A stretch of 64,000 bases of DNA from a virus (Duplodnaviria; Caudoviricetes). Shown piece by piece: positions 12,483 through 39,351 of the stretch (positions are counted from its first letter, which is position 1; each line of letters opens with the position of its first letter). The notes beneath the pieces were generated by a model. It saw nothing but the letters and a program-made list of their open reading frames with translations, made no database searches and was not told where the DNA came from. The position numbers and the translations under genes are program-made. The DNA lies in the IMG/VR virus record IMGVR_UViG_3300032092_000001, one strand, 5' to 3'.

Positions 12483-12483
12483 T

Positions 12484-13496: not shown

Positions 13497-13868
13497 TTAA
13501 TTTCTTACGTGACTTTCACCAACTCTTATAAATAGTTTATTCGCAATTGGTAATACTTGAACTCCTGAATCATCTCTGAGAACAAATTCACCTTCATATA
13601 AACCTGGACGATTTGTATTACCTTCCTTAAACTTATAAAAAAGATAATATTCAGGTTTGGTATTGTTTTTATCAACAAATATTTTGTCAGTAAAACCTGC
13701 CTTAGCGTTTAATATCTTATACGCACCTGTATTTACATCTCTCATAGAGAAATAAATTGCAGAATCACCGATTAACGACATGAACTCTTCATAGTCGGCA
13801 ATACCATCCTTAACAACTTGCATTTTTAAAATAGGCAAAGTTGCCCCTTTATTAATAAAAAACTCCAT
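13497..13868 (-). CDS. BppU N-terminal-like domain protein
   Basis: MEFFINKGATLPIL...YKFKEGNTNRPGLYEGEF...VLPIANKLFIRV. Confidence 0.5.
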   Translation of the reverse strand: MEFFINKGATLPILKMQVVKDGIADYEEFMSLIGDSAIYFSMRDVNTGAYKILNAKAGFTDKIFVDKNNTKPEYYLFYKFKEGNTNRPGLYEGEFVLRDDSGVQVLPIANKLFIRVGESHVRN

Positions 13869-13897: not shown

Positions 13898-15565
13898 CTA
13901 ACATTCTTTCCTTAAATTACTTGGATAATGCTCAAATCTATCGTGTTCTGTCGGAGTCATTAATAAAATCGCAGGATTAAGTTCTCCTTTAACGGTTTGT
14001 TGAAAATTGTGGGACATTATAGTTTGCTCAAATGGACTTTGGAATCGTGTTTCTAAATAACATTTATAACTACCTCTTTTACTTAGGACTATCGGCCAAT
14101 TACATAAAAATATTTCACCGATGGCATATGGGACTCCCTTATGAATTTTTATTTCGTTAAATTTTGTTCTTGGTGAGTTTTCAGAAATACCTTGTGTCGG
14201 AAGTTTTTTATTGTTCGGCCAATGTTGTTCTCTAAAACTTTGTGGAACATTGTACCAACTCCATTGTGTACTATTATCTCCGTAAAATTCTGTAAAATTT
14301 AATTTTAAGAAATCAAAATTTTCCTTATGTATTATTTCTAAACTTTTTTGATATAATTTTTCAGTGAATCTTGGAAACCCGTTTTTACAGACTTCACCTT
14401 TTTTTGAGTAAAAAAACATATCATCTTCAAAAAACCACATGAAATCTAAATTAGTTTCATCAAAGTGCTCTGCAATAAATTGTCTTCCTCCTGTAATTCC
14501 AATATTATCTTTCTTAATATGCTCAAATCCATATTCTTCACACAACTCCACATACCTTGGTGTTGTTGACAAATCCACTGAATTGTCTAAAAGATATTTT
14601 TTAGGTCTCTCAATAAAGTCGCTATCGTACTCCAACATTGAATTTATTAATGTCTCAAACTGATTAGGACTATTAAAGGTAATAACATACAGAGCAACCT
14701 TACTTAAATCCAAAGGTTCTATCACTTTAACAAATTCAGTTTTTTTATTTAGGTTATCATTTTTTAAATCTTCAAAGAATTTACCAAATAAACCATTTGA
14801 TTCAATTTCAAAATAGTTAATTTTTTCAGGGTACTTATACACCATAATAGAGAATATTGATTCTTCAGTGCCCATAAAACCTTTAGATAAAGTATCATTT
14901 AATAAATGATAATAGTTTGAATTTATTTCACCTATTGTGTCTTTGGGTCCTCCAAAAAATCCACCTCTCGCAACTTTTTTAACATCACTTTCAGCCCATT
15001 CATTTATTATAGGATAAGTAAAACCATGTATTTCATTTTCAGCATCATAAGAAAAACAAACAAATGTAAATTTATCAATATATTTCTCTAACTTATTAAT
15101 AACTTTATCATGAGTGAAATATCCTGGATGAACCGTATTTGTTAATCCAGCATCAATCCAAAATAAATTATCTGAGTTAAATTTGTCTAAAATTCTGGCA
15201 TCATTAAGTAAAAACATTTTAGACATAACCAAAGGGTTATACATTTCTAATTTCGCCTGAGTTGAGTCTTTTAACCACCCTGATTGATTATACCAATTTT
15301 CATTATTTCTAATTAGTTGGATTTTTTCATAAAATTCGTTATTAGTAAACCAAGACTTATCACGAATAATAAACTGAGTATTCTCAGGACTTCTTCTTTC
15401 CCAAACAAATTCTTCAAGTTCTTTTTCTCCAAAAATTATTAAATTTTCACTAACAGTTAACAACTGCTCAAATTTTGATAGGTAGTAATCAAACCCCCTA
15501 TTCCACCCCTCTGTCAAATTACCTCTTCCAATATCCCAAAGACCTGTAACTAATGTTGTACTCAT
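13898..15565 (-). CDS. two-domain glycosyltransferase: HtrL/YibB(WlaTC)-like N-terminus plus GT-A C-terminus
   Basis: TTLVTGLWDIGRG, FWIDAG, GGFFGG and GTEESIFS are HtrL-like; second domain has WFFEDD. Confidence 0.7.
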   Translation of the reverse strand: MSTTLVTGLWDIGRGNLTEGWNRGFDYYLSKFEQLLTVSENLIIFGEKELEEFVWERRSPENTQFIIRDKSWFTNNEFYEKIQLIRNNENWYNQSGWLKDSTQAKLEMYNPLVMSKMFLLNDARILDKFNSDNLFWIDAGLTNTVHPGYFTHDKVINKLEKYIDKFTFVCFSYDAENEIHGFTYPIINEWAESDVKKVARGGFFGGPKDTIGEINSNYYHLLNDTLSKGFMGTEESIFSIMVYKYPEKINYFEIESNGLFGKFFEDLKNDNLNKKTEFVKVIEPLDLSKVALYVITFNSPNQFETLINSMLEYDSDFIERPKKYLLDNSVDLSTTPRYVELCEEYGFEHIKKDNIGITGGRQFIAEHFDETNLDFMWFFEDDMFFYSKKGEVCKNGFPRFTEKLYQKSLEIIHKENFDFLKLNFTEFYGDNSTQWSWYNVPQSFREQHWPNNKKLPTQGISENSPRTKFNEIKIHKGVPYAIGEIFLCNWPIVLSKRGSYKCYLETRFQSPFEQTIMSHNFQQTVKGELNPAILLMTPTEHDRFEHYPSNLRKEC

Positions 15566-16158
15566 TCCGTGTCTCTAACTTTATAAATTATGTGGTCCAC
15601 AAACTCACTTTCAAACATTTTACCGATTTCTTCATAAAAATAAACATCTCCAAAAACATCTTCTCTAAAATTAGGTAACTTATGAGTATTAGGAATTACC
15701 CCCATACATTTCCCAACATTACCAATTGTAAAATCTTGTAATTTCCAATTAATATCCCCACCCCATTTATGTTTGAAGATATAAAGTTTATTTGGGTTAT
15801 TTACTGTTTGTTTAATAACTGAAAAGGCATCAGGTGTGTACCTATCATCATCGTCGGCAAACATTAAAAAATTACCTTCCAGATTATTCATGTGTTGATT
15901 TAATAATGGGTGTCCGTATTTCCAAACTCTCTCACCTTCATTTCTAATGTGATTAACTTTAAATTTAAAGTCATATAAATTTAAAACTTCTGAGACGTAA
16001 GAATGATTAATATCTGAGATAATTGTAAAAACATCATTTTCACTTAATTGGTCTTTAAATGATTCTATCAATCTTGGTAATGTGGTTCTACCAATAGAAG
16101 TACAAACTATATTAATACTATACATAACATCTTTCTCTAACGTATTTTGATTCATCAT
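15562..16158 (-). CDS. GT2-like glycosyltransferase
   Basis: IVCTSIGR start, FADDDDRY motif, GDVYF. True start may be the ATG at 16125. Confidence 0.7.
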   Translation of the reverse strand: MMNQNTLEKDVMYSINIVCTSIGRTTLPRLIESFKDQLSENDVFTIISDINHSYVSEVLNLYDFKFKVNHIRNEGERVWKYGHPLLNQHMNNLEGNFLMFADDDDRYTPDAFSVIKQTVNNPNKLYIFKHKWGGDINWKLQDFTIGNVGKCMGVIPNTHKLPNFREDVFGDVYFYEEIGKMFESEFVDHIIYKVRDTE

Positions 16159-16981
16159 AAATGTCTAAAATATCTAAAAATGATTTTTGTAAATCTAACC
16201 AATCACCAAATTCAAATGAGTAGCACTCTTCATTTTTTCTACCTGTAAGTACTGTGAGAACCTCTTGTTCACTAATTAATTGGTTATGGTTTTCAAGATA
16301 GCTTGTGAAAATGTCTAAATATCCATCTAAAACATGTCTAACTTTTTCAGATTGACCACCAAATAGACATCCAGGTACCACCTTTAATTCAACACCAAAC
16401 AAAGATTGAAATCTATCTTTCATTTCATAGTTCATAACTATTGAATTTCCTTTTAGATGAATAAATCCGTATTGACTAATTTTATCAACTACCTTATCTA
16501 AAAAGTTTTTAGAGTTAATTAATGGAGCCATATAATCTCTCCATCCATCATGACATGAGGTACCTATCAATCCAGCATCAATCCAAAATATGTTTTCACA
16601 ATCTAACGACTCATCAATTAAAAACTTTAATTTATTTAATACAACTTCCAAATAGTTGTTTACACAATAAATTCTATCATAGTTCATTCCACCTGAAAGT
16701 TCCTGAGTTCTAATCCTATCAATTAATTCACAACTTTCTGAAGTGTTTAATTCTTTGAATTTAAACTCCACATTTGGGAAATTGAACTCATGTTTTAAAT
16801 TAAATTTATCGTAGGAATTTTGGTCAGTGTAAATTACGTATTGATATTCGGGGAATATGATATTCTTAATTGTTGCAACAAGTAATGGGTAATTTTTATA
16901 CCTTTCACCATTTCTTTCTTGAACATAATTTAATTCGTATATTGAACTAACTATTTTAGTACCATTTGTCATGTTGTGCAT
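16118..16981 (-). CDS. HtrL/YibB-like glycosyltransferase
   Basis: IFWIDAG, VPGCLFGG, LISEQEVL; paralogous to the N-domain of 13898-15565. Likely start 16972. Confidence 0.6.
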   Translation of the reverse strand: MHNMTNGTKIVSSIYELNYVQERNGERYKNYPLLVATIKNIIFPEYQYVIYTDQNSYDKFNLKHEFNFPNVEFKFKELNTSESCELIDRIRTQELSGGMNYDRIYCVNNYLEVVLNKLKFLIDESLDCENIFWIDAGLIGTSCHDGWRDYMAPLINSKNFLDKVVDKISQYGFIHLKGNSIVMNYEMKDRFQSLFGVELKVVPGCLFGGQSEKVRHVLDGYLDIFTSYLENHNQLISEQEVLTVLTGRKNEECYSFEFGDWLDLQKSFLDILDIYDESKYVRERCYV

Positions 16982-17666
16982 ATATAATATTTAATGATTT
17001 ATCAGAATTATTTCCGACTTCAATACCATTGATTAGTGAGGAAAAACACATCTCATCTATGTTTCCTGCGGGTATATTTCTTAAAGGTTTGGTTTGTTTA
17101 TAACTAATACACCTATCCCAAGATGATAAAAAATGAGAAAATTTATCCTCATCAATACTAATATATTGAATACAATCTTCAGGCATAAAGTTTAATTTTT
17201 CTTTATCTACTGAAATATTGAAATGTCTTTCGTACTCTAATAATCTATTACCTAGTTCACTATTTGTATTAATTTGTTCTGAAAAATTATACGTGACAGG
17301 TCCTAAAATAGAGTTAGGTTTAAATGAATTAATTATATTTTCTTCGTTAAATAAACCATAGTTAACTCTCATATCCGCGTCAATTAAAATAACGTTTGTA
17401 AACCCTAATTTAAATGCCGCTAAAACAGAATATCTTTTAACTGAGAAGTCAAAATCATAGTAGTTATTTGCGTAATTAGAATACTCAGGGTTAAAATCCT
17501 TTATATTAAATGTTGTAACAAAACATTCATTCTTAATCATTTCAGGGTTATCAGTCATTACGATTAAATTAGCATGAAAATCAGATTTTGAAATGTCCTC
17601 AATAAATCTGTTTACCTGTTCGTAATATCTTTCCCCAAAACAAAAAGTTGCAAAACAAAATTTCAT
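16956..17666 (-). CDS. GT-A fold glycosyltransferase
   Basis: FATFCFGERY start, ILIDADM DxD motif, IDEMCFS. Confidence 0.55.
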   Translation of the reverse strand: MKFCFATFCFGERYYEQVNRFIEDISKSDFHANLIVMTDNPEMIKNECFVTTFNIKDFNPEYSNYANNYYDFDFSVKRYSVLAAFKLGFTNVILIDADMRVNYGLFNEENIINSFKPNSILGPVTYNFSEQINTNSELGNRLLEYERHFNISVDKEKLNFMPEDCIQYISIDEDKFSHFLSSWDRCISYKQTKPLRNIPAGNIDEMCFSSLINGIEVGNNSDKSLNIIYAQHDKWY

Positions 17667-17670
17667 AATC

Positions 17671-18915
17671 TTATAATTTACCTGTTAATCTGTCACACCA
17701 ACCTTTAGATTTAGAATGTGGCCAAACTACCCAATATGTTGGTTTTTCATCTGTATTAAACTCTCTCCATATCTTACAATACCCATCAGGGTCGTTCATA
17801 ACTCTACGTATTTCATTTTCATCCGCATCCTGTCGGTGTAACGTATCATCCTTATCGTTATGAAATGCAACAACCCAAAAATCATAATCAGTTTCAGGTA
17901 CCTGTGAGTAAGCAACATCAATGCAGTGTTTAAAAACAACTGTAAATGAATTAATCCATTCGGTATCATTCTGGTATGGATATGGATTTGGTGGATAATT
18001 TTTATCTATTGTATATTTTTGTACAGCTCTTTTTGAAAATAACAAACCTGAATATTTTTCATAATCTCTTAATGTCCTTTCTTTGCCAAATCCATATTTT
18101 CCAAAATCAAGTTCGTCTTCATTATCCATACCAAAGAGGGAACGATTTTTCTTATGGGCTTTGTTATTTTTATTAACCCAATCACCATCATCATCCCATT
18201 GTTTAACTCTACCCTTTCTTGTGTATTCGTGCCAAATTAAAACTTTATGGGGATGGAATAAATCATAACCATGAGTATATGCTCTAGCTGCTATTGATAT
18301 TTCTTCTCCATGAAAATAAAATTCAGGGTCATGTTGTACTTCTACTGAAAATTTACCTAAAGTAAAACAAAAATGTGCCGAGTAAAATCTGGCAGTCACC
18401 GGCTCAGTCAGATTATTCCAATTTGGTATTGTTTCAGGTAAAAAGAATACCGCCCCCTCAGGAATAAACCTATCAAATACCATTCTCCAAGGCTCCATAG
18501 TTCTACCGTTTGGGTCGTTGTCAGGGTCAAATGAAGACACATACCCCGTCAATAGAGGTTTCTCATATCCTTTAGATTGTAAATCAACAATCATTTTAAT
18601 AAATTCATCATCCCAATTTTTGTCAAATCTCATATGAGAATCTATTTGAAGAGTATATTCTTCATTTTGATAAAGTTGTTGTATCTGATTTCTCGCCCAA
18701 CACGCACCTTTTGACTCGGTATATGGTATGTCAATAATTCTAAATCTATTATCATTACGATATTCATCTAAATTATCAAACCCATCGGTTTCACTAAATT
18801 GTCTGGCGATACCAAAAATTAAATTTTCAGGATTTTTGGCATTATCTAATGCGGAAATAATTGTAGGTATTAATTGTGGGTCTCGGTAAGAAGCTACTTG
18901 AATAAAGATTTTCAT
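17671..18915 (-). CDS. GT60 / GlcNAc-family (PF11397-like) polypeptide N-acetylglucosaminyltransferase
   Basis: IFIQVASYRD, SKGACWAR, LQIDSHMRF, FYSAHFCF, FHGEE, AYTHGYDLFHP, IWHEY: motif series of Gnt1/Gnt2-type enzymes. Confidence 0.8.
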   Translation of the reverse strand: MKIFIQVASYRDPQLIPTIISALDNAKNPENLIFGIARQFSETDGFDNLDEYRNDNRFRIIDIPYTESKGACWARNQIQQLYQNEEYTLQIDSHMRFDKNWDDEFIKMIVDLQSKGYEKPLLTGYVSSFDPDNDPNGRTMEPWRMVFDRFIPEGAVFFLPETIPNWNNLTEPVTARFYSAHFCFTLGKFSVEVQHDPEFYFHGEEISIAARAYTHGYDLFHPHKVLIWHEYTRKGRVKQWDDDGDWVNKNNKAHKKNRSLFGMDNEDELDFGKYGFGKERTLRDYEKYSGLLFSKRAVQKYTIDKNYPPNPYPYQNDTEWINSFTVVFKHCIDVAYSQVPETDYDFWVVAFHNDKDDTLHRQDADENEIRRVMNDPDGYCKIWREFNTDEKPTYWVVWPHSKSKGWCDRLTGKL

Positions 18916-18996
18916 TTTAACATTTTACATTAAAAATATTAAAATAAGTTTTAAATTAAACACATCAAACAAGTTTTTATTTTAAACAATTAAAAT

Positions 18997-21900
18997 TTAT
19001 TGGCGACAAGGTTGATTTAATGAGAACATGTTGATTCTGCTTACACCTCCATTAGTAAATGATATATCACCAACAAATATTATGTTATTTTGACTTTCTA
19101 TAACGTATATTGAGGTATCTCCTTGGGATGTGTTATATCTATTGTTGTCTGCACCGGTTGTATTATTTACCACAAACCAACCTCCTGTACCCGCACCATT
19201 ATAGATATTAAAATCGCCAGCAATTAAATAATCGCCACTACTTAGTTGTAAAACTTTGTTAATCTGAGCAGTGTTTCCTGATACGTAATAAGTTCCAAAT
19301 GTGTTGTCAATGGTTCCAGTATTGTCAAATTTAACATATTGGTACGGCCAACCTGCTCCAAACGCACCCCCCATTAAATAATTTCCATCACTATCAGCAA
19401 TAATTGTTGTTGGATTGTAAGGTGTACTACCTGTAAATGATGGGTCAATTATAAACGTGTCCAAATATATACAAGCGTAACCCCTACCACCGCATAAGTC
19501 ACCATTACCATCAGTAAAGTCAAGAAAATCACCAACAAAAACTAACTGATTATAAGTAGGATTAATTACAAAATCAGAGAAAGTTCTATTTGTACCTGAA
19601 TATTCCAAATCAATTCCCATTAACACATTACCTGATGTGTCATATTTTAACAATCTTGAGGTTGTTCCAATTCTATTTAGAGCAACATAAATCTCATCAT
19701 TGTATATCTCAACTTTACTAATTGAATTACCTGAAATTATGGGTCCAAATATGTTAAACGATGAGTCAAAAGTCCATCCACCTAATCCATCACTTAAATA
19801 TCTACCAAGGGAACCATAATTAGGGCGACTATCAAATCCGGTAAATTCACCCGCAACATAGACATCATTAGTAGTTGAATCTTGACTAATTGATAGTACG
19901 GAACCTCCAACCGGATACCTGTCTAAAACATTTAATATTCTGTTATCATTATCAATTATTGCCAAATAATCATTTGATTTAGTATCAAAATTACCCCCAA
20001 CCCAATATTGGATTGTTGCGGACACTGGTTCATTTACGGCTTTAATTGTGTAATTGATACCAGAGTCAACGGTAAACCCTGTAAAAGAAGTATTTAAAAT
20101 TCCGCATGGACCCAATGAGGTAGTTGTTTGTGTAGGTGTTGGTGTTGGAGTATTTGTAGAAGTCATTGTTTGAGTAACTGTTGGAGTAGGTGTTTTAGTA
20201 CTTGTAGGTGTAATTGTGTTTGTAACCGAAGGAGTTGGGGTCGGGGTTGTTATTGGCGTTGGGGTATCACAAGAGCTAACAATTAAAATAGTGTATGCAG
20301 GCATTGAGAATACAGGTATTGTAACATTAGTGTATGGACTTGTTACATTACCAATTGATATTGGAGTGTTAGTGTTGTTTGTTATTGTAAATTGATTACC
20401 GCTACAAACAGTTGGGGTTGGCTGCCCTTCACAATAATTTAAAGCAGTAATAACCCCAATTGAGTTGGTAGTAAAATTAAAGGTGTCCGCAGTTGTTGTA
20501 TAGTTTACGGTTAAGTTATTTATTAACTCACCATTTAAATACCTCACAACGACTCCGTTAGTTAATGTATTGGCGGTAGATATTGTTAGACCACTTAAAA
20601 TTGGGTTACATGTTGAAATATTTGAAAAATCACTCCATATACCATAATAAGTTCTAAGTTGAATTGAATCTGTAGTTGGAGTTGGTGTTTTAGTACTTGT
20701 AGGTGTAATTGTATTTGTTACTGAAGGTGTCGGTGTTTTGGTATTTGTAGGAGTTAATGTTGGAGTTGGGGTTGGAGTTGGGGTTGGAGGTATTAAGTTT
20801 TTAACCTGTTGATACCCGTAAATAGTATACCCAATTAAGTTAATTCCATTTTTAGAAGTCCCTGACCAAGAATTATATACCGATAAGAAATTATTATACG
20901 CAGTTTCAAATGTATTATTTTGGAAATATGAATTCATATAAGAACTTCCTCCATGATATATTATTGCAACGTCCGCAACAGTTGATGCAGAAATTGCAGA
21001 ATCACCGATTAATGTTAATTCATCAACAATTCTATTAAACCCGTAATTTGTACTTCCTGTAAATTGATTTGTGGTTAGATAACATGCTAATAATATTCTA
21101 TCTAAATTACCAACTAAAAAGTCAGAAACTTGACTTTGGGTATTTGCCGATGTTGGGTCCTCAATTTGACCAATATACGTATCAAATTTAGTTGTAGTAC
21201 CCGATATTGTCTGATTAACTTGGTTTACGTACACTTTCCAAGTATTAAATTGGACAGTCCCCGCATTTGGGTAATTCCAAAACTCATTCTCTAAATTGAA
21301 ATAATCATACTTTTGAGAGTTGGTTGTACAACCTGTGTTATAACTTAATCTTGAGTTTGAAAGTGAACTAATTAAAGAATTAGAACTTCCTCCAATACCC
21401 CCAATAATATCTACTCCGTAATATCTAACATTAGTATTAAATGCCCTTACCGCAGTTCTACCTGAACTTGTTGATAATATCCCATTTAAATCATAACAAT
21501 AGATTGTATTGAATCCTTGTGATTGGATAAAGTTATAAAGTGTTATTTCTTCAGTATTATTACCAATAATTGTATTAAAATCATTGATATATAACGCTCT
21601 AACTAAATCTAAAGGAGTACTTGTTGATGACGGAGTCACTGTTGGTGTAGGTGTTGCAGTTGGGGTTGGATTAGAAGTAGTTGTAGGAGTGATTGACGGT
21701 GTTGGAGTATTTGTTGCGGTTGGTGTTGGCGTTGGAGTCCTTGTTTGTGATGGTGTCGGTGGTATAACCTCAAATATTAACTTGGTATCACCAGTTTGAT
21801 TAAATCCTGAAAGATTTAATCCAAATTCCCCATTAAATAAGTTATAATCAACATCATATACTTGTGTAGTAGACGCTGAGAATGAACCAGGTGGTATGTT

Positions 21901-24144
21901 TAATACCGACGTACCTGTATATGTTATTCCTGATATGGTATTAATTGAACCACTAAACGTTACGTCAAAATTAATTGGGAACACAATATCTGAAACAACT
22001 GTGTAGTTCGCAATAACAGAGCCTGGTTCAAAATCAACTGTAATATCTAAGTCAACTCCTGTAATTGTATCAATATACAAACTCAAAGTTTGGTCTATGT
22101 CAGGGAAATAAAAATAATAAGTACCATTACCATCATTTGTTGGACTATACGAATATGGGAATTCGTTATTTTCACTTTGTCCTACTCTATATATTTCACC
22201 ATTGGGTAAAGCTGAGAAATCAAATGTATAACCTGATAATAACTCAGAATCAAATATTATTGTATTATCACTTACAGTAAAAGATATGTCATTAACCAAT
22301 GTATCGTCACAACTAGGACATCTATGGTTAAACATATTAAACTTATTTACATTAAGTTCAAAGTTATGAACCACTTCAGGATAACTAATTGGTTTAGTAT
22401 ACATTCTAAATTGTGAGATAGCCCCATCAAATGTGCCGGCAAATGTTGGTTCTAATAATATGTCAGTTGTCAATCCTGAATATGATGAATTTTCTAATAA
22501 CCAATCAGGCATAACCTGAGGTACTTGTACGTAGTCAGTTGTACCGGCTGAGAATGATAAACTTTCTCTTAATCCTTGTGTTCCACCTCCCCAAGAAATA
22601 TTAAACGGTGCTCCGATTTGTTTTTCTTTTTCAGTGTGTAACGCTCTTGGGATTACTTCTTCAAACCCATTGATTACAAAAAACAATCTACCATTAATGT
22701 AAATTTTAAGAGAACCTAATCTAAAATCTTTCTCAACTATCCACGCTTCATTAATTCCCAATACTGTAACACTCTGGTCACAATATCCCGGAGTCTTACC
22801 TGAGGTGTTAATTAATTCCAAATCAGGTAATACGTACGTATCATTAGTTATTGAGCCCAACCCTCCAAATTTTTCAATGTCGGCATCGTCATAAAAATTA
22901 TTTCTCTCCCATATGCAGTCAACTTGGAACCAGTGTTCTTTATTTAGATAATCAGGATTTTCTTCTGCACAATAATCAAATATTTTATTTGTTGAACAAT
23001 ACTCCTCAATTGTATATCCACTCAATATCTTTGTTAAATCAGTCTCACATGGTAAAATACCATCAACAGTTGTTGTTGCAGTAACAGTTTCAACAATGGT
23101 TTGCGCGGTGAGTTTTAAAACTTTAACACAAACATTTGGATTTGACATATCCCCTTTTAACCTTAATGCGAAGTTATTTGACATTGAGTCCAATAACGGA
23201 GTACCACTAACACTCATACTAAATGTTCCTGCAGTGCTTGCAGTTAAAACAACCTCACTTGGATTAAATTTTGTGGTTTGGGTGTAAACATCCACACATC
23301 TTGAATTTGTATTGCCCGTTTCAGAACAACTGCAACTAGTTATACCTGTTAAACTACTATCATTATAATAGAACTTGTTTTCCGCTCTGGCACCAAAATA
23401 GAAAAATATGTTTGAATTATCAGGATAAACATCATTTAATGTGACCTGACCTGGCTCAGGAGAATACTGATTTTGTTGACGAGCTTTTAATATCATTTCA
23501 ACCGACCATCCTTTGTTAGTTCGGTTCGGAAATGCTTCGTAATCGTATCCAAATAATTGGAAGAACCCTTGGTAAAACCCTCCATACAAATGATGGTATT
23601 CCCCAAATATATTACTATTTTTTGAAACCACTTCATATACTGTTTGAGCAGTATTCGCCGAAAATCTGACATTTGGAGAGTTAGTATACCCAGTTACTTG
23701 AAATAATTTTAATCTTCTATCAAATGTGTATCTATCAAATGCTAACGCAGAATTTGTTAATCCATTAGTGTATGAAATTGTCATACCTGTCATTTCAGGT
23801 ACTAATCCATTATCAATCCCTGTTAACCCAATATCGCACAATGTTTGAGCAGTAATTAAATATAAATTTTCATTGTTTGGATTATAATAATTCTTTGAAA
23901 TTAGAGTATTTCCAGAATTAAACGTTCCGTAATTTAAATCCAATTTTTGGTTGCAATAATATGAATCCAAATCAAAATAGATTGGTAAAACATTTCCATC
24001 GTTTTCACCAATGATATAGGGGGATAAAGCAACCTCTTCATTAAAACTTTTCTCATCTGAGGCAATTGACACATCAAATAATCTTGGGACAGATTTGACA
24101 TACCATTTCTTAAAATTATATTGATTAATATTCTGTTGGGTCAT
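18997..24144 (-). CDS. 1715-aa modular virion-type protein: LamG-like N-region, mucin-like Thr/Pro linkers, TIM-barrel glycoside-hydrolase-like domain, C-terminal beta-propeller-like repeats
   Basis: LKIYINGRL...FDGAISQFRMYTKPIS (LamG-like); three TP tracts; YDYFNLENEFW; GGxF / D-x-T-F repeats at the C-terminus. Confidence 0.6.
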   Translation of the reverse strand: MTQQNINQYNFKKWYVKSVPRLFDVSIASDEKSFNEEVALSPYIIGENDGNVLPIYFDLDSYYCNQKLDLNYGTFNSGNTLISKNYYNPNNENLYLITAQTLCDIGLTGIDNGLVPEMTGMTISYTNGLTNSALAFDRYTFDRRLKLFQVTGYTNSPNVRFSANTAQTVYEVVSKNSNIFGEYHHLYGGFYQGFFQLFGYDYEAFPNRTNKGWSVEMILKARQQNQYSPEPGQVTLNDVYPDNSNIFFYFGARAENKFYYNDSSLTGITSCSCSETGNTNSRCVDVYTQTTKFNPSEVVLTASTAGTFSMSVSGTPLLDSMSNNFALRLKGDMSNPNVCVKVLKLTAQTIVETVTATTTVDGILPCETDLTKILSGYTIEEYCSTNKIFDYCAEENPDYLNKEHWFQVDCIWERNNFYDDADIEKFGGLGSITNDTYVLPDLELINTSGKTPGYCDQSVTVLGINEAWIVEKDFRLGSLKIYINGRLFFVINGFEEVIPRALHTEKEKQIGAPFNISWGGGTQGLRESLSFSAGTTDYVQVPQVMPDWLLENSSYSGLTTDILLEPTFAGTFDGAISQFRMYTKPISYPEVVHNFELNVNKFNMFNHRCPSCDDTLVNDISFTVSDNTIIFDSELLSGYTFDFSALPNGEIYRVGQSENNEFPYSYSPTNDGNGTYYFYFPDIDQTLSLYIDTITGVDLDITVDFEPGSVIANYTVVSDIVFPINFDVTFSGSINTISGITYTGTSVLNIPPGSFSASTTQVYDVDYNLFNGEFGLNLSGFNQTGDTKLIFEVIPPTPSQTRTPTPTPTATNTPTPSITPTTTSNPTPTATPTPTVTPSSTSTPLDLVRALYINDFNTIIGNNTEEITLYNFIQSQGFNTIYCYDLNGILSTSSGRTAVRAFNTNVRYYGVDIIGGIGGSSNSLISSLSNSRLSYNTGCTTNSQKYDYFNLENEFWNYPNAGTVQFNTWKVYVNQVNQTISGTTTKFDTYIGQIEDPTSANTQSQVSDFLVGNLDRILLACYLTTNQFTGSTNYGFNRIVDELTLIGDSAISASTVADVAIIYHGGSSYMNSYFQNNTFETAYNNFLSVYNSWSGTSKNGINLIGYTIYGYQQVKNLIPPTPTPTPTPTLTPTNTKTPTPSVTNTITPTSTKTPTPTTDSIQLRTYYGIWSDFSNISTCNPILSGLTISTANTLTNGVVVRYLNGELINNLTVNYTTTADTFNFTTNSIGVITALNYCEGQPTPTVCSGNQFTITNNTNTPISIGNVTSPYTNVTIPVFSMPAYTILIVSSCDTPTPITTPTPTPSVTNTITPTSTKTPTPTVTQTMTSTNTPTPTPTQTTTSLGPCGILNTSFTGFTVDSGINYTIKAVNEPVSATIQYWVGGNFDTKSNDYLAIIDNDNRILNVLDRYPVGGSVLSISQDSTTNDVYVAGEFTGFDSRPNYGSLGRYLSDGLGGWTFDSSFNIFGPIISGNSISKVEIYNDEIYVALNRIGTTSRLLKYDTSGNVLMGIDLEYSGTNRTFSDFVINPTYNQLVFVGDFLDFTDGNGDLCGGRGYACIYLDTFIIDPSFTGSTPYNPTTIIADSDGNYLMGGAFGAGWPYQYVKFDNTGTIDNTFGTYYVSGNTAQINKVLQLSSGDYLIAGDFNIYNGAGTGGWFVVNNTTGADNNRYNTSQGDTSIYVIESQNNIIFVGDISFTNGGVSRINMFSLNQPCRQ
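20110..21773 (-). repeat. three Thr/Pro-rich (TP)n tracts at about 21613-21773, 20671-20790 and 20110-20265
   Basis: For example TPTPTPTATNTPTPSITPTTTSNPTPTATPTPTVTP; the 21-mer TPTPSVTNTITPTSTKTPTPT is present in two tracts. Confidence 0.9.
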
Positions 24145-24177: not shown

Positions 24178-24191
24178 ATATAAAAACTAAA

Positions 24192-26795: not shown

Positions 26796-28010
26796 ATGAA
26801 AGAAAAAATTAAAGTTTTAGTTATTCCATCAGACACAACAGGTGTTGGTAGATTCCGTTCTATAAATCCACACACGTTTTTGCAAGAAAAATACTTTGAG
26901 GATTTTCACATTGATATTGAATTTAATCCTGATTTAAACAATCTAAATTATTTTAAAGACTATCAAATAATTCATTTCCATCGTTCAGTTGGACCTGATT
27001 TGGACCGTTCAATTCAAGTAATACCTATTCTAAATTCAATGGGGATTATCACTATTTGTGATATTGATGATTATTGGTCTCCAACTAAAGAACATCCTTT
27101 ACATGACATTATTGTTACTCAAAAGATTAACGAGAAGATTGTTGCAAATTTAAAATTAGCAAAGTATGTTACAACAACAACGGAAGTATTTGCGGACGAG
27201 ATTAAAAAAATTAATCCAAATGTCGTAATTTTCCCAAATGCCATTGACCCAACGGAACCTCAGTTTAATGAACAATTAGTTGAGTCTGACAAAGTTAGGG
27301 TTGGTTGGTTAGGTGGCTCAAGTCACTTACATGATTTGAGACTTTTAGACGGAATGGTTGCAAAACTTTCTGACGTTCAAAAAGACATTCAATTTGTTCT
27401 TTGTGGTTTTGATACAAGAGGTATGATGACCGAAATTAATCAACAAACAGGTGAGCAAAAACGTAGACCGATTAAACCTCATGAGACCGTATGGTATGAG
27501 TATGAAAAAATATTCACAAATAACTATTCAATCGTAACACCTGAGTATAAAAAACATTTGGAGTTGTTTAGTCAAACAGAATTCTCAAATGAAATTAATG
27601 AATCGTATTTGAGAGTGTGGACGAAACCTGTTACATCATATGCTCGGAACTATTCAAAATTTGATATATCTTTGGCACCAATTAAACAACATATCTTTAA
27701 TAAGGTTAAATCACAATTAAAGGTAATTGAAGCGGGTTTCTATAAGAAAGCGTTAATTGCAACTGACTTCGGACCATATACCATTGATTTAAAACACGCT
27801 TTAAAGAATGGTGAGTTCACTGATGGTAACGCATTACTTGTTAAAGAAAGTAGAAACCACAGTGATTGGGCTAAGTACATTAAGAAATTGGTACAAAACC
27901 CAAACATGAGAATTGACATGGGTGAGAGACTTTACGAACACGTATCACAAAGATATGATTTAAATATTGTAACAAAAAACAGAGCAGAATTCTATAAATC
28001 AATTGTATGA
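26796..28010 (+). CDS. GT-B (GT4-like) glycosyltransferase
   Basis: ICDIDDYW, RVGWLGGSSH, FNKVKSQLKVIEAGFYKKALIATDFGPY. Confidence 0.8.
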   Translation: MKEKIKVLVIPSDTTGVGRFRSINPHTFLQEKYFEDFHIDIEFNPDLNNLNYFKDYQIIHFHRSVGPDLDRSIQVIPILNSMGIITICDIDDYWSPTKEHPLHDIIVTQKINEKIVANLKLAKYVTTTTEVFADEIKKINPNVVIFPNAIDPTEPQFNEQLVESDKVRVGWLGGSSHLHDLRLLDGMVAKLSDVQKDIQFVLCGFDTRGMMTEINQQTGEQKRRPIKPHETVWYEYEKIFTNNYSIVTPEYKKHLELFSQTEFSNEINESYLRVWTKPVTSYARNYSKFDISLAPIKQHIFNKVKSQLKVIEAGFYKKALIATDFGPYTIDLKHALKNGEFTDGNALLVKESRNHSDWAKYIKKLVQNPNMRIDMGERLYEHVSQRYDLNIVTKNRAEFYKSIV

Positions 28011-28705
28011 TAAAACATCCATTACATAAAATCTTATTCCTTGACATTGAGACCGTCGGAATATCAAGTAATTTTGAAAATTTTCAAAAGGACCATCCTT
28101 CTCTTTCTTACCAATTTGAAAACTATTTGGATTGGTTTAAAAAAAGGTTTCCTGAAGAAGAAAGTAACACAAAGGAACAAATATTTGTTAATAGAGCAGC
28201 TTTGGTGCCTGAGTTTTCAAAAATTGTTTGTGTTTCGGTCGGATTTGTTGACCCAAAAGGTGAAGTTAAGAAACAAACATTCTTTAATTCAGACGAGACT
28301 CAATTATTAAGAGATGTGAACGCTCTTCTAAACCGTGTAGATAAATTAGGGTTTATTTTGTGCGGACATAACTTGAAGAATTTTGATATTCCCGTACTTG
28401 CAAAAAGAATGATGATAAATGGAATTTTACCATCGTCAATTTTACCGACATATGACACAAAACCATGGGAGATTAAAGCAATTGATACAAAAGAGATTTG
28501 GCAATACGGACAATTCGGAGCGATATCGTCACTTGAATTAATGTGTATTTCATTGGGTATTGAAAGTTCAAAAAATATGGAGGTTACTGGCAATAAAGTT
28601 CATGACTCATTTTGGAATGAAAATAAGTACCAAGAAATTCAAGATTATTGTGAGAAAGATGTTGAGGTGTTAATAAATGTTGTTAGTAAATTAGTGTCAT
28701 TATGA
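28007..28705 (+). CDS. DEDD 3'-5' exonuclease, PolB-exonuclease-related
   Basis: LFLDIETV, GHNLKNFDIPVL, YCEKDV. Confidence 0.85.
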   Translation: MIKHPLHKILFLDIETVGISSNFENFQKDHPSLSYQFENYLDWFKKRFPEEESNTKEQIFVNRAALVPEFSKIVCVSVGFVDPKGEVKKQTFFNSDETQLLRDVNALLNRVDKLGFILCGHNLKNFDIPVLAKRMMINGILPSSILPTYDTKPWEIKAIDTKEIWQYGQFGAISSLELMCISLGIESSKNMEVTGNKVHDSFWNENKYQEIQDYCEKDVEVLINVVSKLVSL

Positions 28706-29298
28706 GTCAAAACAAAGAAATAAGTGATGATGAGTTTGTAAAACAAATCAATGAAATGAGAAAAGTTTTACAATCTTTAGTAGATGGGGAATCTGTAAAT
28801 GAATTAAGTGACGAATTGGGTACTGACTTTTCAGAATTCAATGAGTTAGTCTTTAACCCTCCTATTACAAAAATAGAGTTAAAATACAAGTCACCATTTA
28901 AGTTATTTTATAATTATGAATCCGATAGTGGATTTGATTTATATTCAACTGAAGAGATTACCATACCCGCTTTTGGTAGAGTATTAGTTCCAACAGGAAC
29001 TTACTTTGACATACCGTCAGGACATGAAATACAGGTTAGAACAAAAAGTGGATTAGCAATTAAAGAAGGATTAATGGTATTAAACAGTCCCGGAACTGTA
29101 GACGAAGGATATACAGGTGAAGTTAAAGTAATTATTTTTAATGTTAACAACCACGAATACACAATTAAAAAAGGTATGAAAGTTGCTCAAGCCGTATTGG
29201 CGAGATGTCACCAAGGGATTTCAGTTGATTTAGTCTCGGTAAGTGGGATTGATGAGAAGGATAGAAATGAAAACGGTTTTGGGAGTACGGGGATATGA
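28702..29298 (+). CDS. dut: trimeric dUTPase with N-terminal extension
   Basis: SGFDL, RTKSG, GTVDEGYTGE, KVAQAV, RNENGFGSTG. Confidence 0.92.
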   Translation: MSQNKEISDDEFVKQINEMRKVLQSLVDGESVNELSDELGTDFSEFNELVFNPPITKIELKYKSPFKLFYNYESDSGFDLYSTEEITIPAFGRVLVPTGTYFDIPSGHEIQVRTKSGLAIKEGLMVLNSPGTVDEGYTGEVKVIIFNVNNHEYTIKKGMKVAQAVLARCHQGISVDLVSVSGIDEKDRNENGFGSTGI

Positions 29299-30929
29299 TT
29301 ACGATAGGATATAGTACAAGAGAATCTAAACCTGAGTTTCAAGAGTATTTAAGAAAATCTGCAGGACACCCCAAGGTTCAGATTATTGAAAAGGTTAATA
29401 ATGGAGAAAAAAACTTATCTCAAGTTTATAATGAAATTATATCTGAATCTAACCACGATATTATAGTTTTATGTCACGACGACATTTATTTTGATACAAA
29501 TAATTGGGCTAACAAGTTATCCAAAGTTTTTGATAAAAATTCAGAATATGGAATACTCGGAATGGCAGGTACTACTCACATGCCAAAAAGTGGTATGTGG
29601 TGGGAAGATAGAACAAAAATGTACGGAATTGTTAATCACGAACATGATGGAAAAAAATGGGAGTCAAAATATGCCGATTCATTAGGTAATGACGTTAAAG
29701 AAGTTGTAGTAGTTGATGGTGTATTTATTGCCATTCATAAAAACAAGATTAAAAGTAATTTTGATGAATCCGTTAGTGGATTTCATATGTACGATATAAA
29801 TTTTTGTTTTAAGAACTTCTTAGATGGAGTTAAAATTGGAGTCATAACAAACATACGTCTTACTCACAAATCCATTGGAATGACAAACGAACAATGGGAA
29901 ACCAATAAGAATTTGTTTGCTGAAAAATACAAAGACAACCTACCAACAAAAGTTAAATTTAACGAAAACTCAAATTTAAAAGTTTTAATATCTTGTTTGT
30001 TTTTTCAAAAATTTACAGGTTCAGAAATGTACGTTTTTGAATTAGCTAAAAATTTAGTTAAACAAAATTGTGATGTCACTGTTGTCGCATCTGAGACCAA
30101 CGGACCATTAGTATTGATGGCAACTAAATTAGGTATTAAAGTTAAGAATATAAAAGAAACTCCTGGATTTAAAATGGGTGATGGTAAATGGATGATTAAT
30201 ACAGACAAAGGACCACAACCATCAATTCCAAATAATTTTTATCAAGTAGACACTCCGCATTTTGATATTATTCATTGTCAACACAAACCAATTGTTGAGA
30301 TTATGAATACACTATATCCAACAGTTGATAAAATTTGTACGATTCATTCTGAAGTAATTGCACTTGAGAATCCTGTAGTACATAATAGTATTAAAAGATA
30401 CATCGCAATCCGTCCTGAGATTAAAGAACATATTGTGAATAATTTTAATATATCTGAAGATATTGTAGATGTCATCTATAACCCAATTGATGAAACCAAA
30501 TTTTATAACAAAAATATAAAGTCTGAGAATTATATTTTATTTGTCGGCTCAATTGATTACTTGAGGAAAAATACAATATTAGATTTGATAGAAGTTTCTA
30601 AAAATGAGAATAAAGAACTTTGGTTGGTTGGTGAAAATAAATCAGATTACCTAACTGAAATTTTAAAAAACTCACATGTAAAATATTTTCCACCCACATT
30701 AGAAGTTGATAAATACATTCATAAATGTAGTGAGACTGCGGGTATACTTTTAGGTAGAACAACAATTGAGGGGTGGATGTGCGGAAAACCAGGTTGGATT
30801 TATAATGTTGATGGTACAGGTAAAATAATAAATAAAGAATTTCATGATGTTCCGTCAAATATTGATAGATTTTATTCGTCAAATGTGTCAATAGAAATAA
30901 AACGTAAGTATTGTTTAATAATATCTTAA
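29295..30929 (+). CDS. bifunctional GT-A (GT2-like) plus GT-B (GT4-like) glycosyltransferase
   Basis: N-domain VLCHDD, VVDGVFIA, FHMYDINFC; C-domain GSEMYVFELAKNL, GRTTIEGWMCGKP. Confidence 0.8.
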   Translation: MITIGYSTRESKPEFQEYLRKSAGHPKVQIIEKVNNGEKNLSQVYNEIISESNHDIIVLCHDDIYFDTNNWANKLSKVFDKNSEYGILGMAGTTHMPKSGMWWEDRTKMYGIVNHEHDGKKWESKYADSLGNDVKEVVVVDGVFIAIHKNKIKSNFDESVSGFHMYDINFCFKNFLDGVKIGVITNIRLTHKSIGMTNEQWETNKNLFAEKYKDNLPTKVKFNENSNLKVLISCLFFQKFTGSEMYVFELAKNLVKQNCDVTVVASETNGPLVLMATKLGIKVKNIKETPGFKMGDGKWMINTDKGPQPSIPNNFYQVDTPHFDIIHCQHKPIVEIMNTLYPTVDKICTIHSEVIALENPVVHNSIKRYIAIRPEIKEHIVNNFNISEDIVDVIYNPIDETKFYNKNIKSENYILFVGSIDYLRKNTILDLIEVSKNENKELWLVGENKSDYLTEILKNSHVKYFPPTLEVDKYIHKCSETAGILLGRTTIEGWMCGKPGWIYNVDGTGKIINKEFHDVPSNIDRFYSSNVSIEIKRKYCLIIS

Positions 30930-30998
30930 AATACTGAAAATTATAATAAGTGTTTTATTTATTTTTATTCAAAAATTAGTACTTTTTAGTATAAAAAT

Positions 30999-31706
30999 AT
31001 GGAAATAAGAGTTTTAGTTATCAATATAAACAATAAAAATTATACTAAAAATTGTATAAATTTACTTTTAAATCAAAGATTTAAAAAATTTAAAATTACT
31101 TTATTCGACCAAAGTTCTACCGAAGAGGGTACCGAAGAAATATTAAATTATTTCATCAATCTTGGGGTTGACGTAATAAAGAGTGATTCTAATGTTCCTG
31201 TAAATTCTGTTTGGAATTGGTTTTATGAAAATTATAATGAAGATATATTATGTTTTTTAAATAATGATGTACTTATTTATGATAATTTTATTTCAGACAT
31301 TATTAATGTTTTTAAAAAGGAGCCGACCGTTGGTGTTGTCGTACATTCAACTAATCATGATAATTTTACAGAAAAAAAAGAAATTACCGAGTATACCGTA
31401 GTAGAACCAAAAATATTTATGCAAGGGTGGGATTTTAGTATTAGGAGAGATGCATATACTATAGTTCCAACAGAATTAAAAACTTATTGCGGTGATGATT
31501 TTATTTTCCATAACTTATACGAAAAGGGGTATAATTTAGCATATATTACAAGCTCTCCGATGATTCATTTTGAAGGTCAATCAAAACCATTCCTTTCTCA
31601 TGGAGGGGTTATTGATATCATTACGTATAAAAATATGGGATATCCTCATTATTTAAGAATTAATAATGAATTTTCAAATTTAAGACCAAATAAAATCTTT
31701 ATATAA
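30999..31706 (+). CDS. GT2-like glycosyltransferase
   Basis: CFLNNDV, YCGDDFI. Confidence 0.75.
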   Translation: MEIRVLVININNKNYTKNCINLLLNQRFKKFKITLFDQSSTEEGTEEILNYFINLGVDVIKSDSNVPVNSVWNWFYENYNEDILCFLNNDVLIYDNFISDIINVFKKEPTVGVVVHSTNHDNFTEKKEITEYTVVEPKIFMQGWDFSIRRDAYTIVPTELKTYCGDDFIFHNLYEKGYNLAYITSSPMIHFEGQSKPFLSHGGVIDIITYKNMGYPHYLRINNEFSNLRPNKIFI

Positions 31707-31714
31707 AATTACCA

Positions 31715-32704
31715 ATGAAAATTTTAATAACAGGAGTTGCAGGACTATTAGGTAGCCGATTATCAGACTGGATAATTGAAAATAAAACAGATGTTGAGGT
31801 TATTGGAATTGATAACCTAAGTGGGGGATATATAGAAAATATAAATAATAAGGTAAGATTTTACAATATGGACCTTAAAGATTTTAATTTAAGTAATATC
31901 TTTGAAGATGAAAAACCTGATTATGTTTTTCATTTCGCCGCATATGCCGCGGAAGGTCTTTCTCCATTTATTAGACAATATAACTACGAAAATAATCTAG
32001 TATCAACATCAAACATCATAAACCAATGCATTCAAAATAATGTTAAACGTTTGATTTTTACATCAAGTTTAGCAGTATATGGGCATGGTTATGGAGGAGT
32101 TTTTGATGAAAACCAAATTCCAAAACCTATTGACCCATATGGAGTGGCCAAATACGCATGTGAAATGGATATTCAGATTGCCGGAGAGCAACACGGTTTA
32201 GATTGGTGTATCATTAGACCACATAATGTTTATGGAATTAAACAAAATATTTGGGATAAATATCGTAATGTTTTAGGAATATGGATGTACCAATATCTAA
32301 ATAATGAACCGATGACAATTTTTGGCGATGGGGAACAGACTAGAGCTTTTAGTTATATTGATGATTGTTTAGAACCTCTTTGGAATTCATGTATCTTACC
32401 TGAAGCATCAAAACAAATTATTAATTTAGGGGGTATTGAAGAATATTCTATTAAATATGCGTGTCAAATTTTACAAGAGATTATCGGTTCCGGTAACATT
32501 GTATATAAAGAATCAAGACATGAAGTAAAGAATTCAATACCGACCTATCAAAAATCAATTGATATTTTAGGTTTTTCACATAAAACATCATTGAGAGATG
32601 GATTGAGTCATATGTGGGAATGGGCGAAAAAACAACCTAAAAGAGATAGATTTATTTGGCCTTCTTATGAGATAAATAAAGGAATATATTCTTTTTGGAA
32701 ATGA
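31715..32704 (+). CDS. NAD-dependent NDP-sugar epimerase/dehydratase (extended SDR)
   Basis: ITGVAGLLG (GxxGxxG), FTSSLAVYG, YGVAK (YxxxK), RPHNVYG. Confidence 0.92.
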   Translation: MKILITGVAGLLGSRLSDWIIENKTDVEVIGIDNLSGGYIENINNKVRFYNMDLKDFNLSNIFEDEKPDYVFHFAAYAAEGLSPFIRQYNYENNLVSTSNIINQCIQNNVKRLIFTSSLAVYGHGYGGVFDENQIPKPIDPYGVAKYACEMDIQIAGEQHGLDWCIIRPHNVYGIKQNIWDKYRNVLGIWMYQYLNNEPMTIFGDGEQTRAFSYIDDCLEPLWNSCILPEASKQIINLGGIEEYSIKYACQILQEIIGSGNIVYKESRHEVKNSIPTYQKSIDILGFSHKTSLRDGLSHMWEWAKKQPKRDRFIWPSYEINKGIYSFWK

Positions 32705-33300
32705 AAAATACTAATATAGAGTTTATAATACCAACATATAATAGACCGTATCAACTTTTAACAGTTATTGGGTCAATTGCGTCTCAGATAAATCCAAATT
32801 GGAGGGTACATGTTGTTGCGGATTGTCATTATGAAGGGTATGATAATATTAAATTTTTCTTTAAAAATGAAAAAAGAATTAAATTTTCGGTATTAGATGG
32901 TCCTCATAACGATTGGGGTCATACCCCGAGAATTTATGGTCTACAAAATGCAACCGAAGAATGGGTGGTTATGACAGGGGACGATAATTATTACACACCG
33001 AATTTCGTAGATTCTTTTTTATCGGTAATTGACGATGAGGTTAATTTTGTATACTGTGATATGTTACACAACCATGATACAACTCAATGTAATTCTTATA
33101 GGTATTTTGAATCTTCTCCCAAAATTAACTTTATTGACATAGGAAATTTCGCGTCAAGAACTCACCTTTCAAAATTAATACCCTTTAATAAGGGCTCCTA
33201 TAGTGCGGATGGGGAATTCGTTGAGTCTTATATAAAAAAATTTTGTAATGAAAAAAATAATATAAAAAAAATAAATAAATCACTTTATATCCATAATTAA
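32695..33300 (+). CDS. GT2-like glycosyltransferase
   Basis: FIIPTYNR, MTGDDNYY, ADGEF. Confidence 0.75.
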   Translation: MEMKNTNIEFIIPTYNRPYQLLTVIGSIASQINPNWRVHVVADCHYEGYDNIKFFFKNEKRIKFSVLDGPHNDWGHTPRIYGLQNATEEWVVMTGDDNYYTPNFVDSFLSVIDDEVNFVYCDMLHNHDTTQCNSYRYFESSPKINFIDIGNFASRTHLSKLIPFNKGSYSADGEFVESYIKKFCNEKNNIKKINKSLYIHN

Positions 33301-34492: not shown

Positions 34493-34493
34493 T

Positions 34494-35237: not shown

Positions 35238-35254
35238 AAAAATAATACAGATTT

Positions 35255-36657: not shown

Positions 36658-36670
36658 CACATATAATATA

Positions 36671-38287: not shown

Positions 38288-38288
38288 T

Positions 38289-39350: not shown

Positions 39351-39351
39351 T

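Follow-up and report, generated by a model that had tools for sequence, protein, structure and literature searches.

A candidate protein O-glycosylation cassette with a GT60-like enzyme beside a Thr-Pro-tract protein in a jumbo phage

The DNA analysed here is a 64,000-nucleotide (nt) stretch from a tailed virus (IMG/VR record IMGVR_UViG_3300032092_000001), called the window throughout, in which a block of six minus-strand genes encodes a modular protein of 1715 amino acids (aa) with three Thr-Pro (TP) tracts, a GT60-like glycosyltransferase (GT) of 414 aa and further candidate GTs of 236, 287, 198 and 555 aa. The block is probably a protein O-glycosylation cassette whose acceptors are the TP tracts of the phage's own modular proteins, first among them the 1715-aa protein. 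The support provided by the analysis consists of family membership, fold, motif, gene order, conservation and a statistical association between the enzyme and TP tracts, whereas what the acceptor is, which sugar it receives, in which order the enzymes act, where the protein sits on the virion and the biological roles proposed earlier are inferred. An earlier annotation made from the sequence of the window, here termed the original prediction, had flagged the same genes as a mucin-type system, and the positions and strand that it gave for all six open reading frames (ORFs) proved accurate (Table 1).

The GT60-like enzyme and its association with Thr-Pro tracts

The 414-aa protein matches PF11397, the profile of CAZy family GT60, with E 7.1e-68 (230.1 bits against a cut-off of 21, the best stretch covering profile positions 92-349 of 352) and phrog_24687 with E 7e-168, and all of its homologues carry PF11397. 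The profile search had been named in the original prediction as the check on its family assignment, which is borne out by this match, by an invariant DxH motif and by a fold of the polypeptide GalNAc-transferase (ppGalNAc-transferase) kind. A catalytic region from aa 1 to ~325, containing D92-S-H94 and H229, is followed by an extra C-terminal beta domain of ~90 aa, and reading of the sequence revealed neither a membrane segment nor a signal peptide. No substitution of D92, H94 or H229 occurs among 44 diverse homologues (alignment at 35-80% identity). A survey of GT-A enzymes describes DxH in place of the DxD metal motif as characteristic of GT27 and GT60 (PMC7185993), and D92-S-H94 corresponds to it. 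The AlphaFold model derived from the alignment of the 44 homologues has a mean pLDDT (predicted local distance difference test) of 96.1. The 29 best PDB entries for this model are all ppGalNAc-transferases (including T1, T2, T4, T7, T10 and T12; Z 19.4-22.5, ~275 residues, ~3.5 Å) whereas generic or polysaccharide-type GT2 enzymes reach a Z of at most 17.9, and the modelled GT-A fold is accordingly closest to GT27.

Characterised GT60 enzymes have polypeptide acceptors only, adding GlcNAc to Thr or Ser of mucin-like proteins in Dictyostelium and Trypanosoma cruzi or acting on the hydroxyproline of Skp1 (PMC8724618, PMC6939170). A hydroxyproline acceptor of the Skp1 type was considered for the phage enzyme and is unlikely, because five GT60-bearing phage genomes contain no match to the prolyl hydroxylase family PF13640. 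A complex prediction for the GT60-like enzyme with TP tract 2 (aa 1116-1159) scored 0.00 and speaks neither for nor against binding. The C-terminal beta domain (17671-17940, aa ~325-414) was not identified as ricin-like; it is present in the phage copies and in many bacterial copies, and absent from beta-proteobacterial copies linked to the type VI secretion system (T6SS), in which matches end near residues 308-324 (370 in Ralstonia). Five metagenomic proteins of 1600-2460 aa (P0243, P0244, P0246, P0253 and P0257) each carry up to four separate GT60-like stretches.

The enzyme is encoded at 67-80% identity in 21 related phage loci from IMG/VR, to which two Xanthomonas phage loci were added. 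ORFs with a TP tract lie within 10 kb of the GT60-like gene in 18 of the 21 related loci and in both Xanthomonas phage loci, and directly upstream of it in 10 loci, as the proposal that synteny should be sought among relatives had anticipated. In four of the related phages (L011, L013, L016 and L021) the upstream TP protein is longer than 3300 aa and ends ~50 nt before the GT60-like gene. Furthermore, TPTxTPT-coding sites are abundant in all five GT60-bearing phage genomes counted, with 15-120 per genome against 0-2 in a reversed control. The order of the GT60-like gene, the 555-aa gene, a 123-aa domain protein and the DNA polymerase is kept in most of the 21 loci, and the 555-aa gene is present in nearly all related phage loci. 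GT60 and the 555-aa gene are adjacent in L019 and up to ~9 kb apart elsewhere, and where scanned the interval holds variable genes for GT25, GT2, GT10 fucosyltransferase-like and RXYLT1/GT47-like enzymes, FkbM methyltransferases and a UDP-GlcNAc 2-epimerase. As judged from gene content, this is the pattern of a constant core of GT60 and 555-aa enzymes with a variable outer glycan.

The same pair is found in Xanthomonas and Stenotrophomonas jumbo phages (GT60 47-49% and 555-aa 43% identity), and in the phages XacN1 and Xoo-sp13 a TP-rich giant protein lies ~8 kb from it. In XacN1 the GT60 homologue is ORF334 and the TP protein is ORF325, of 3313 aa, which directly follows two baseplate wedge genes. 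Purified XacN1 virions contain at least two protein bands positive for periodic acid-Schiff stain, and in 2018 its authors proposed ORF328 and ORF334 as the makers of the virion glycoproteins (PMC5852040). A 765-aa carbamoyltransferase is encoded between the GT60-like and HtrL-like genes of both phages (L001:11390-13687, L002:11409-13706), and carbamoylated sugars are therefore suggested for XacN1 and Xoo-sp13.

Beyond phages, the GT60-like gene was confirmed at 568 or more bacterial loci, and its relatives form ~4560 clusters at 50% identity in metagenomes. Among 80 bacterial loci fetched for a study of their neighbourhood, 29 have a homologue of the 555-aa protein, mostly right beside the GT60-like gene, and ~24 have a T/S-P tract of at least 40 aa within 5 kb, often less than 350 nt away. 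The GT60-like and HtrL-like pair is a widespread bacterial module common to phages and bacteria, not a phage invention. Strict TPTPTPT-coding sites were counted in 55 whole genomes and the number in the 17-kb GT60 locus was compared with the expectation from locus size; 137 of 340 sites fell in these loci against 1.24 expected. Sites were present in the GT60 locus of 14 of the 41 genomes that have any, or 9 of 36 once five genomes picked after their tracts had been seen are removed. One of the 55 (G056, locus L097) is flagged as unpublished, but it has two sites in the genome and none in the locus, and the result is unaffected. The concentration is extreme in individual genomes: 54 of 58 sites in Ralstonia sp. 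25C lie 1.1 kb from the GT60-like gene, 41 of 42 in an Achromobacter genome lie 4 kb from it, and both sites in a Gemmatimonadaceae genome lie 50-80 nt upstream of it. The TP carriers near GT60 are mutually unrelated (VgrG spikes, LamG, fn3/BNR, PqqD-like and small anchored proteins), and that the tract is the only feature common to them is the strongest argument for recognition of the tract itself by the enzyme. The link between GT60 and TP tracts thus recurs on bacterial chromosomes of several phyla, and that TP tracts are O-glycosylated is a well-supported inference.

Several of the bacterial loci have features of their own. In Ralstonia sp. 25C (L065:2878-13131) the T6SS cluster runs in the order tssF, tssG, tssA, a fimbrial-adhesin-like gene and GT60, and similar cases are L085, L098 and L099. 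The beta-proteobacterial VgrG near GT60 has a C-terminal extension of ~130 aa consisting of (TP)n, or of (PPPSET)n in Burkholderia, which is nearly the sole tract of its kind in the genome and may be a glycosylated linker. In Gemmatimonadaceae the GT60-like gene and the homologue of the 555-aa gene are immediately preceded by a gene for a 241-aa protein that combines a PqqD-like domain with a TP tract (L037:7230-7955, L035:7215-7940, L040:7155-7874); PqqD-like domains are of the peptide-binding kind found in pathways for ribosomally synthesised and post-translationally modified peptides. A metagenome-assembled genome (MAG) of Ginsengibacter (L033:1-4955) has three consecutive ORFs with (KPTPPPTTT)n repeats ~3 kb upstream of its GT60-like gene, repeats similar to the Thr/Lys/Pro repeats known from trypanosome mucins. 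The closest non-phage copies of the enzyme, at 65-71% identity, are in Bacteroidota (L024-L027, MAGs of Saprospiraceae and other members of the phylum), where 555-aa homologues are 58-62% identical (L024-L026) and the GC content of L025 is 34%. The major head protein of the window was not found in three Bacteroidota genomes including L025, in a search that had no positive control, and these copies were therefore treated as bacterial loci. They may point to a host among the Bacteroidota or to an exchange of genes with these bacteria.

The 1715-aa protein and the accompanying transferases

The gene for the 1715-aa protein is the sole real gene with a Thr/Pro tract in the window, and it has the three tracts that the original prediction had noted. 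An N-terminal module (aa 1 to ~700) is followed by TP linkers that separate domains of ~270 and ~130 aa. TP linkers 2 and 3 have an 81-nt block in common (20180-20260 and 20675-20755, 81% identity, both encoding TPTPSVTNTITPTSTKTPTPT), which suggests duplication or exchange between them. The N-terminal module is common to more than 1200 metagenomic proteins with varying C-terminal domains, and the distal domains of proteins that share it include Peptidase_C1 (papain-like), Fib_succ and glycoside-hydrolase-like domains. The confident core of the N-terminal model is a lectin jelly roll of the ConA/LamG type, for which a fold search returned sialidase CBM40 domains, a pilus lectin module and a cyanophage tailspike (Z 13-14.6). 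The C-terminus (aa 1347-1715, ~370 residues) resembles a beta-propeller of the DUF5122 type (Atlas search 0.95), and no signal peptide was seen at the N-terminus when the sequence was read. A conserved N-terminus, swappable distal domains and the lack of a signal peptide would fit a receptor-binding protein or a virion-borne enzyme carrier. The protein is most likely exposed on the virion, a placement that draws on an architecture like that of adhesins and on comparison with ORF325 of XacN1.

The spacer between this gene and the 414-aa gene had been given as 82 nt; it is 81 nt, although the accompanying statement that no obvious terminator follows the 1715-aa gene was right, as the spacer contains no terminator-like hairpin. 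A scan for promoters and terminators found nothing that exceeds the shuffled background. A T4-type late-promoter-like TATAAATA lies at 24171-24178 on the minus strand, 27 nt upstream of the start of the 1715-aa gene in a 47-nt divergent spacer; no timing is drawn from it, since such motifs are no more frequent in the window than expected (8 found, 14 expected).

The inventory of four further GT genes in the original prediction was essentially right, although two of its five assignments are weak. The 555-aa protein has two domains. Its N-terminal half matches HtrL_YibB (PF09612, E 1.3e-16, 61.4 bits against a cut-off of 24.1), and the protein scores 75 bits against TIGR02192 (E 7e-21), far under the equivalog cut-off of 264.9, so that it is a family-level relative of HtrL and not a YibB equivalent. 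Its C-terminal half has weak matches of the GT-A type only (TAGT, E 0.0095; phrog_842, E 4e-4). The 287-aa protein is 24% identical to the HtrL half of the 555-aa protein (E 1e-6, with the WIDAGL motif in both), and only through this paralogue is it matched to HtrL/YibB; a weak homologue occurs in XacN1 and Xoo-sp13. The 236-aa protein has no match in Pfam or NCBIfam; Atlas search leads point to the retaining GT-A families GT8, GT6 and Nucleotid_trans (0.95). Part of a multi-GT protein in the related phage L016 shares 29% identity with it, and homologues are present in few relatives only.

Together these genes suggest the following course of events. The soluble 414-aa enzyme, a retaining GT-A transferase with a DxH metal site, would act in the host cytoplasm and place a first sugar, probably an N-acetylhexosamine (HexNAc) such as GlcNAc, on Thr hydroxyls in the TP tracts. 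The conserved two-domain HtrL/GT-A enzyme of 555 aa would add the next sugars, and the 236-, 287- and 198-aa proteins, a cassette that differs from phage to phage, would add lineage-specific outer sugars. The linkers that join the binding and enzyme domains of the adhesin-like protein would thereby become stiff, resistant to proteases and coated with glycans.

Table 1. Positions of the features discussed, numbered from the first nucleotide of the window
Feature	Position	Strand	Basis or remark
1715-aa modular protein, candidate acceptor	18997..24144	-	ORF and translation
TP tract 1, aa 794-845	21610..21765	-	Translation of the 1715-aa protein
TP tract 2, aa 1116-1159	20668..20799	-	Translation of the 1715-aa protein
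TP tract 3, aa 1290-1346	20107..20277	-	Translation of the 1715-aa protein
414-aa soluble GT60-like GT-A enzyme, proposed initiating polypeptide O-glycosyltransferase	17671..18915	-	PF11397, phrog_24687
236-aa probable GT-A transferase, variable cassette	16956..17666	-	Atlas leads; ILIDAD motif
287-aa HtrL-like protein, variable cassette	16118..16981	-	Paralogue of the HtrL half of the 555-aa protein
198-aa GT2-like protein (sub-threshold), variable cassette	15562..16158	-	PF00535, E 3.4e-4, 21 bits against a cut-off of 23.3
555-aa two-domain transferase, HtrL_YibB half and GT-A-like half	13898..15565	-	Pfam, NCBIfam
123-aa conserved domain protein	13497..13868	-	Domain with a C-terminal TP tail in many relatives (e.g. 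L013 15444-16085, L016 18719-19345, L019 14538-15380)
Second sugar-metabolism island	26796..40158	+	Opposite strand to the flagged block
Family B DNA polymerase	2212-4992		Flank of the GT block
Major head protein	49490-51319		phrog_138, E 4e-66
Portal	55203-57044		phrog_213, E 2e-65

The head protein and portal genes mark the window as part of a large tailed phage. Exact or near-exact copies of its proteins occur on metagenome contigs of up to ~285-294 kb, which makes the source a jumbo phage; the description of it as T4-like was not supported. A nucleotide search with the block found no match among 50,697 phage records, and no cultured phage is close at the nucleotide level. The GT block extends beyond the flagged genes, on the other strand and to ~40 kb, where a second island encodes at least nine GTs (GT1/GT4-like and six or more of the GT2 type), a GalE-like epimerase (TIGR01179, E 1.5e-32) and two or three methyltransferases. 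Scattered between these are genes for PhoH, a dUTPase/dCTP-deaminase-like protein and an exonuclease of the PolB type, and synteny of the island with the related phages L003 and L005 holds up to 30929. About 16 GT domains are encoded by the whole window.

Evidence against the proposal and alternative roles

Several observations weigh against a cassette that glycosylates TP tracts of virion proteins. The tracts are put forward as acceptors from association only. Solved structures were matched by sequence neither with the 414-aa protein nor with the profile of its 44 homologues, which sets the GT60-like clade at a distance from any structurally characterised enzyme; likewise, no NCBIfam model matches the protein, and membership of GT27 was not found at the sequence level, PF11397 being the only Pfam match. 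For the 1715-aa protein, the model of the N-terminal 720 aa has a mean pLDDT of only 50.6, and for this reason only its lectin-like core was used. No structural family among known virion proteins (PHROGs, Pfam) was matched, and its status as a virion protein, which the original prediction had assumed, therefore stays presumptive; a tblastn search with its N-terminal module also found nothing in the 50,697 phage records. The block had furthermore been placed inside the tail/fibre region. This could not be confirmed because the S/T-rich neighbours at 5079-13494 match no family in PHROGs or Pfam (a protein search with a 969-aa neighbour gave no match among phage records), and the flanks of the block are the DNA polymerase and the second GT island, with the head genes 25 kb off.

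The association with TP tracts also has gaps. Three related phage loci (L009, L010 and L023) have no TP-tract ORF within 10 kb of GT60, and in genomes of the clade TP-tract genes occur in several clusters, some of them ~100 kb from GT60 (G001). Adjacency is therefore an enrichment and not a rule, and the enzyme would then be working in trans on a range of proteins. In roughly half of the bacterial loci no TP tract lies close to the GT60-like gene, and the beta-proteobacterial GT60-like gene and the TP-bearing VgrG are convergent and do not form one operon.

The distant TP genes and the bacterial loci that have no tract would both be expected if the GT60-like enzyme modified another protein, be it a capsid or tail subunit, which is the mycobacteriophage case, or a host protein in the course of takeover, and the TP tracts were bystanders, flexible linkers in a variable adhesin region. 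Many modular extracellular proteins indeed have TP linkers although no transferase is dedicated to them. Such an arrangement is nevertheless judged unlikely, as several bacterial genomes have their only or main TP tract beside the GT60-like gene, on unrelated carriers, and an argument from a variable region fails to explain this placement.

Glycosylation of TP tracts has also to be weighed against a role at the host surface, in which the transferases would build or remodel an envelope glycan (lipopolysaccharide (LPS), capsule or exopolysaccharide), for example against superinfection, and the TP protein would be an unrelated neighbour. The ~16 GT domains, the GalE-like epimerase and the methyltransferases do resemble a polysaccharide locus, HtrL/YibB takes its name from a gene of the Escherichia coli LPS core region, and the weak best matches of some GTs in the window are the lipid-linked pathway enzymes PglI, PglJ and Agl16. 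However, no match to a priming polyprenyl-phosphate/phosphoglycosyltransferase, a flippase, a polymerase or an export family was found among the ORFs scanned at 13.9-48 kb, GT60 has no known lipid or polysaccharide acceptor, and the fold of the 414-aa protein groups with polypeptide transferases, not with the GT2 enzymes of polysaccharide synthesis. The genome-wide link to TP tracts in bacteria would, moreover, be left unexplained, and a host-surface role is given a low probability.

It is highly improbable that the transferases glycosylate hypermodified bases of the phage DNA in evasion of restriction: the TAGT and phrog_842 matches of the 555-aa protein belong to DNA-base glycosyltransferase families and a dUTPase/dCTP-deaminase-like gene lies in the neighbouring island, but these matches are sub-threshold and may reflect the GT-A fold only, the complete relative G002 has GT60 and no hydroxymethylase of the thymidylate synthase family, the same GT60 and 555-aa pair occurs on bacterial chromosomes, and ~16 GT domains far exceed the need of base glycosylation. 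A search of G002 for TET/JBP also gave no match, which is weak evidence because the control genomes matched nothing either.

Wider meaning and comparison with known systems

GT60 is known biochemically from protists only. A survey of 2020 lists the family in prokaryotes as well as protists (PMC7185993), and no function of a prokaryotic or phage member was found in the open-access literature; to this extent the novelty originally claimed holds, although phage-made virion glycoproteins had been suggested for XacN1 in 2018 (PMC5852040) and the enzyme pair is also bacterial. A paper on the 'Moraphage' group describes four core groups of glycosyltransferases in aquatic jumbo phages and mentions neither GT60 nor TP tracts (PMC12619734).

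With a confidence that stops a little short of even, the GT60-like enzyme and its HtrL-like partner may represent an undescribed, widespread prokaryotic system of mucin-type-like O-glycosylation for the Thr-Pro linkers of proteins exported independently of Sec. Its users would be jumbo phages (virion adhesins), beta-proteobacteria (T6SS VgrG spikes) and other phyla (lectin-like and small anchored proteins), and swappable extension transferases would give glycan diversity. If the enzyme does decorate TP linkers, bacteria and their viruses would own a mucin-type initiation system homologous to the eukaryotic one, and TP linkers, which are very common in phage fibres and T6SS spikes, would call for a second look as potential sites of glycosylation. 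The variable GT cassettes of abundant freshwater jumbo phages would then amount to glycan diversification of exposed proteins, with a bearing on adsorption, protease resistance and recognition.

Among known systems, the 414-aa enzyme resembles the protist GT60 enzymes (Dictyostelium Gnt1 and pp-alphaGlcNAcT2, T. cruzi pp-alphaGlcNAcT) in its strong PF11397 match, its DxH motif and a GT-A fold nearest GT27. Like them it has no ricin-type lectin domain, it is predicted to be soluble as Gnt1 is, and its candidate acceptors are Thr/Pro-rich as protist mucins are. It differs in coming from phage and bacteria, in its extra ~90-aa C-terminal beta domain, in its HtrL-like two-domain partner and in the lack of an accompanying prolyl hydroxylase in the five phage genomes, which makes a route of the Skp1/hydroxyproline type unlikely. 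Animal and apicomplexan GT27 enzymes provide the best structural matches (Z up to 22.5 over ~280 residues) and have in common with it the DxH motif, a C-terminal His and the proposed dense glycosylation of Thr/Pro-rich tracts. A GEE-containing motif in the 414-aa protein is taken, without an alignment, to be the equivalent of the Gal/GalNAc-T motif. In contrast to GT27, the phage enzyme is only 10-15% identical, has no match at the sequence level, lacks both the ricin lectin domain and the membrane anchor, and would work in the cytoplasm whereas GT27 works in the Golgi.

The serine-rich repeat adhesins of Gram-positive bacteria are glycosylated by GtfA/GtfB and accessory transferases of the GT-B fold (GT4), and are exported by an accessory Sec pathway. 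The proposed cassette would share with them a cytoplasmic HexNAc initiator encoded beside an adhesin with low-complexity repeats, followed by variable extension transferases, although the enzyme fold is unrelated and the repeats are Thr-Pro rather than Ser-rich.

Virion glycosylation in mycobacteriophages modifies the C-termini of capsid and tail-tube subunits (Freeman et al. 2023, cited in PMC12619734). There, as here, phage transferases are proposed to O-glycosylate the phage's own proteins. As far as that secondary account goes, no GT60 is reported in mycobacteriophages, whereas here large adhesin-like proteins would be modified at TP linkers in their interior, and Gram-negative bacteria have the enzyme pair too. 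Furthermore, the transferases of the window do not lie beside capsid or tail-tube genes, the major head and portal genes being 25-33 kb away in a separate gene block.

A further parallel is offered by XacN1 (ORF334, ORF330-333 and ORF325). XacN1 belongs to another phage lineage, as its DNA polymerase is barely similar, and it has the carbamoyltransferase inside its cassette; the paper on it did not identify the GT family, the TP acceptors or the glycoprotein bands (PMC5852040). Nevertheless, its GT60 is 48% and its 555-aa partner 43% identical to those of the window, the genes stand in the same order, a TP-rich giant protein is encoded nearby, and XacN1 is a phage in which virion glycoproteins have been detected experimentally.

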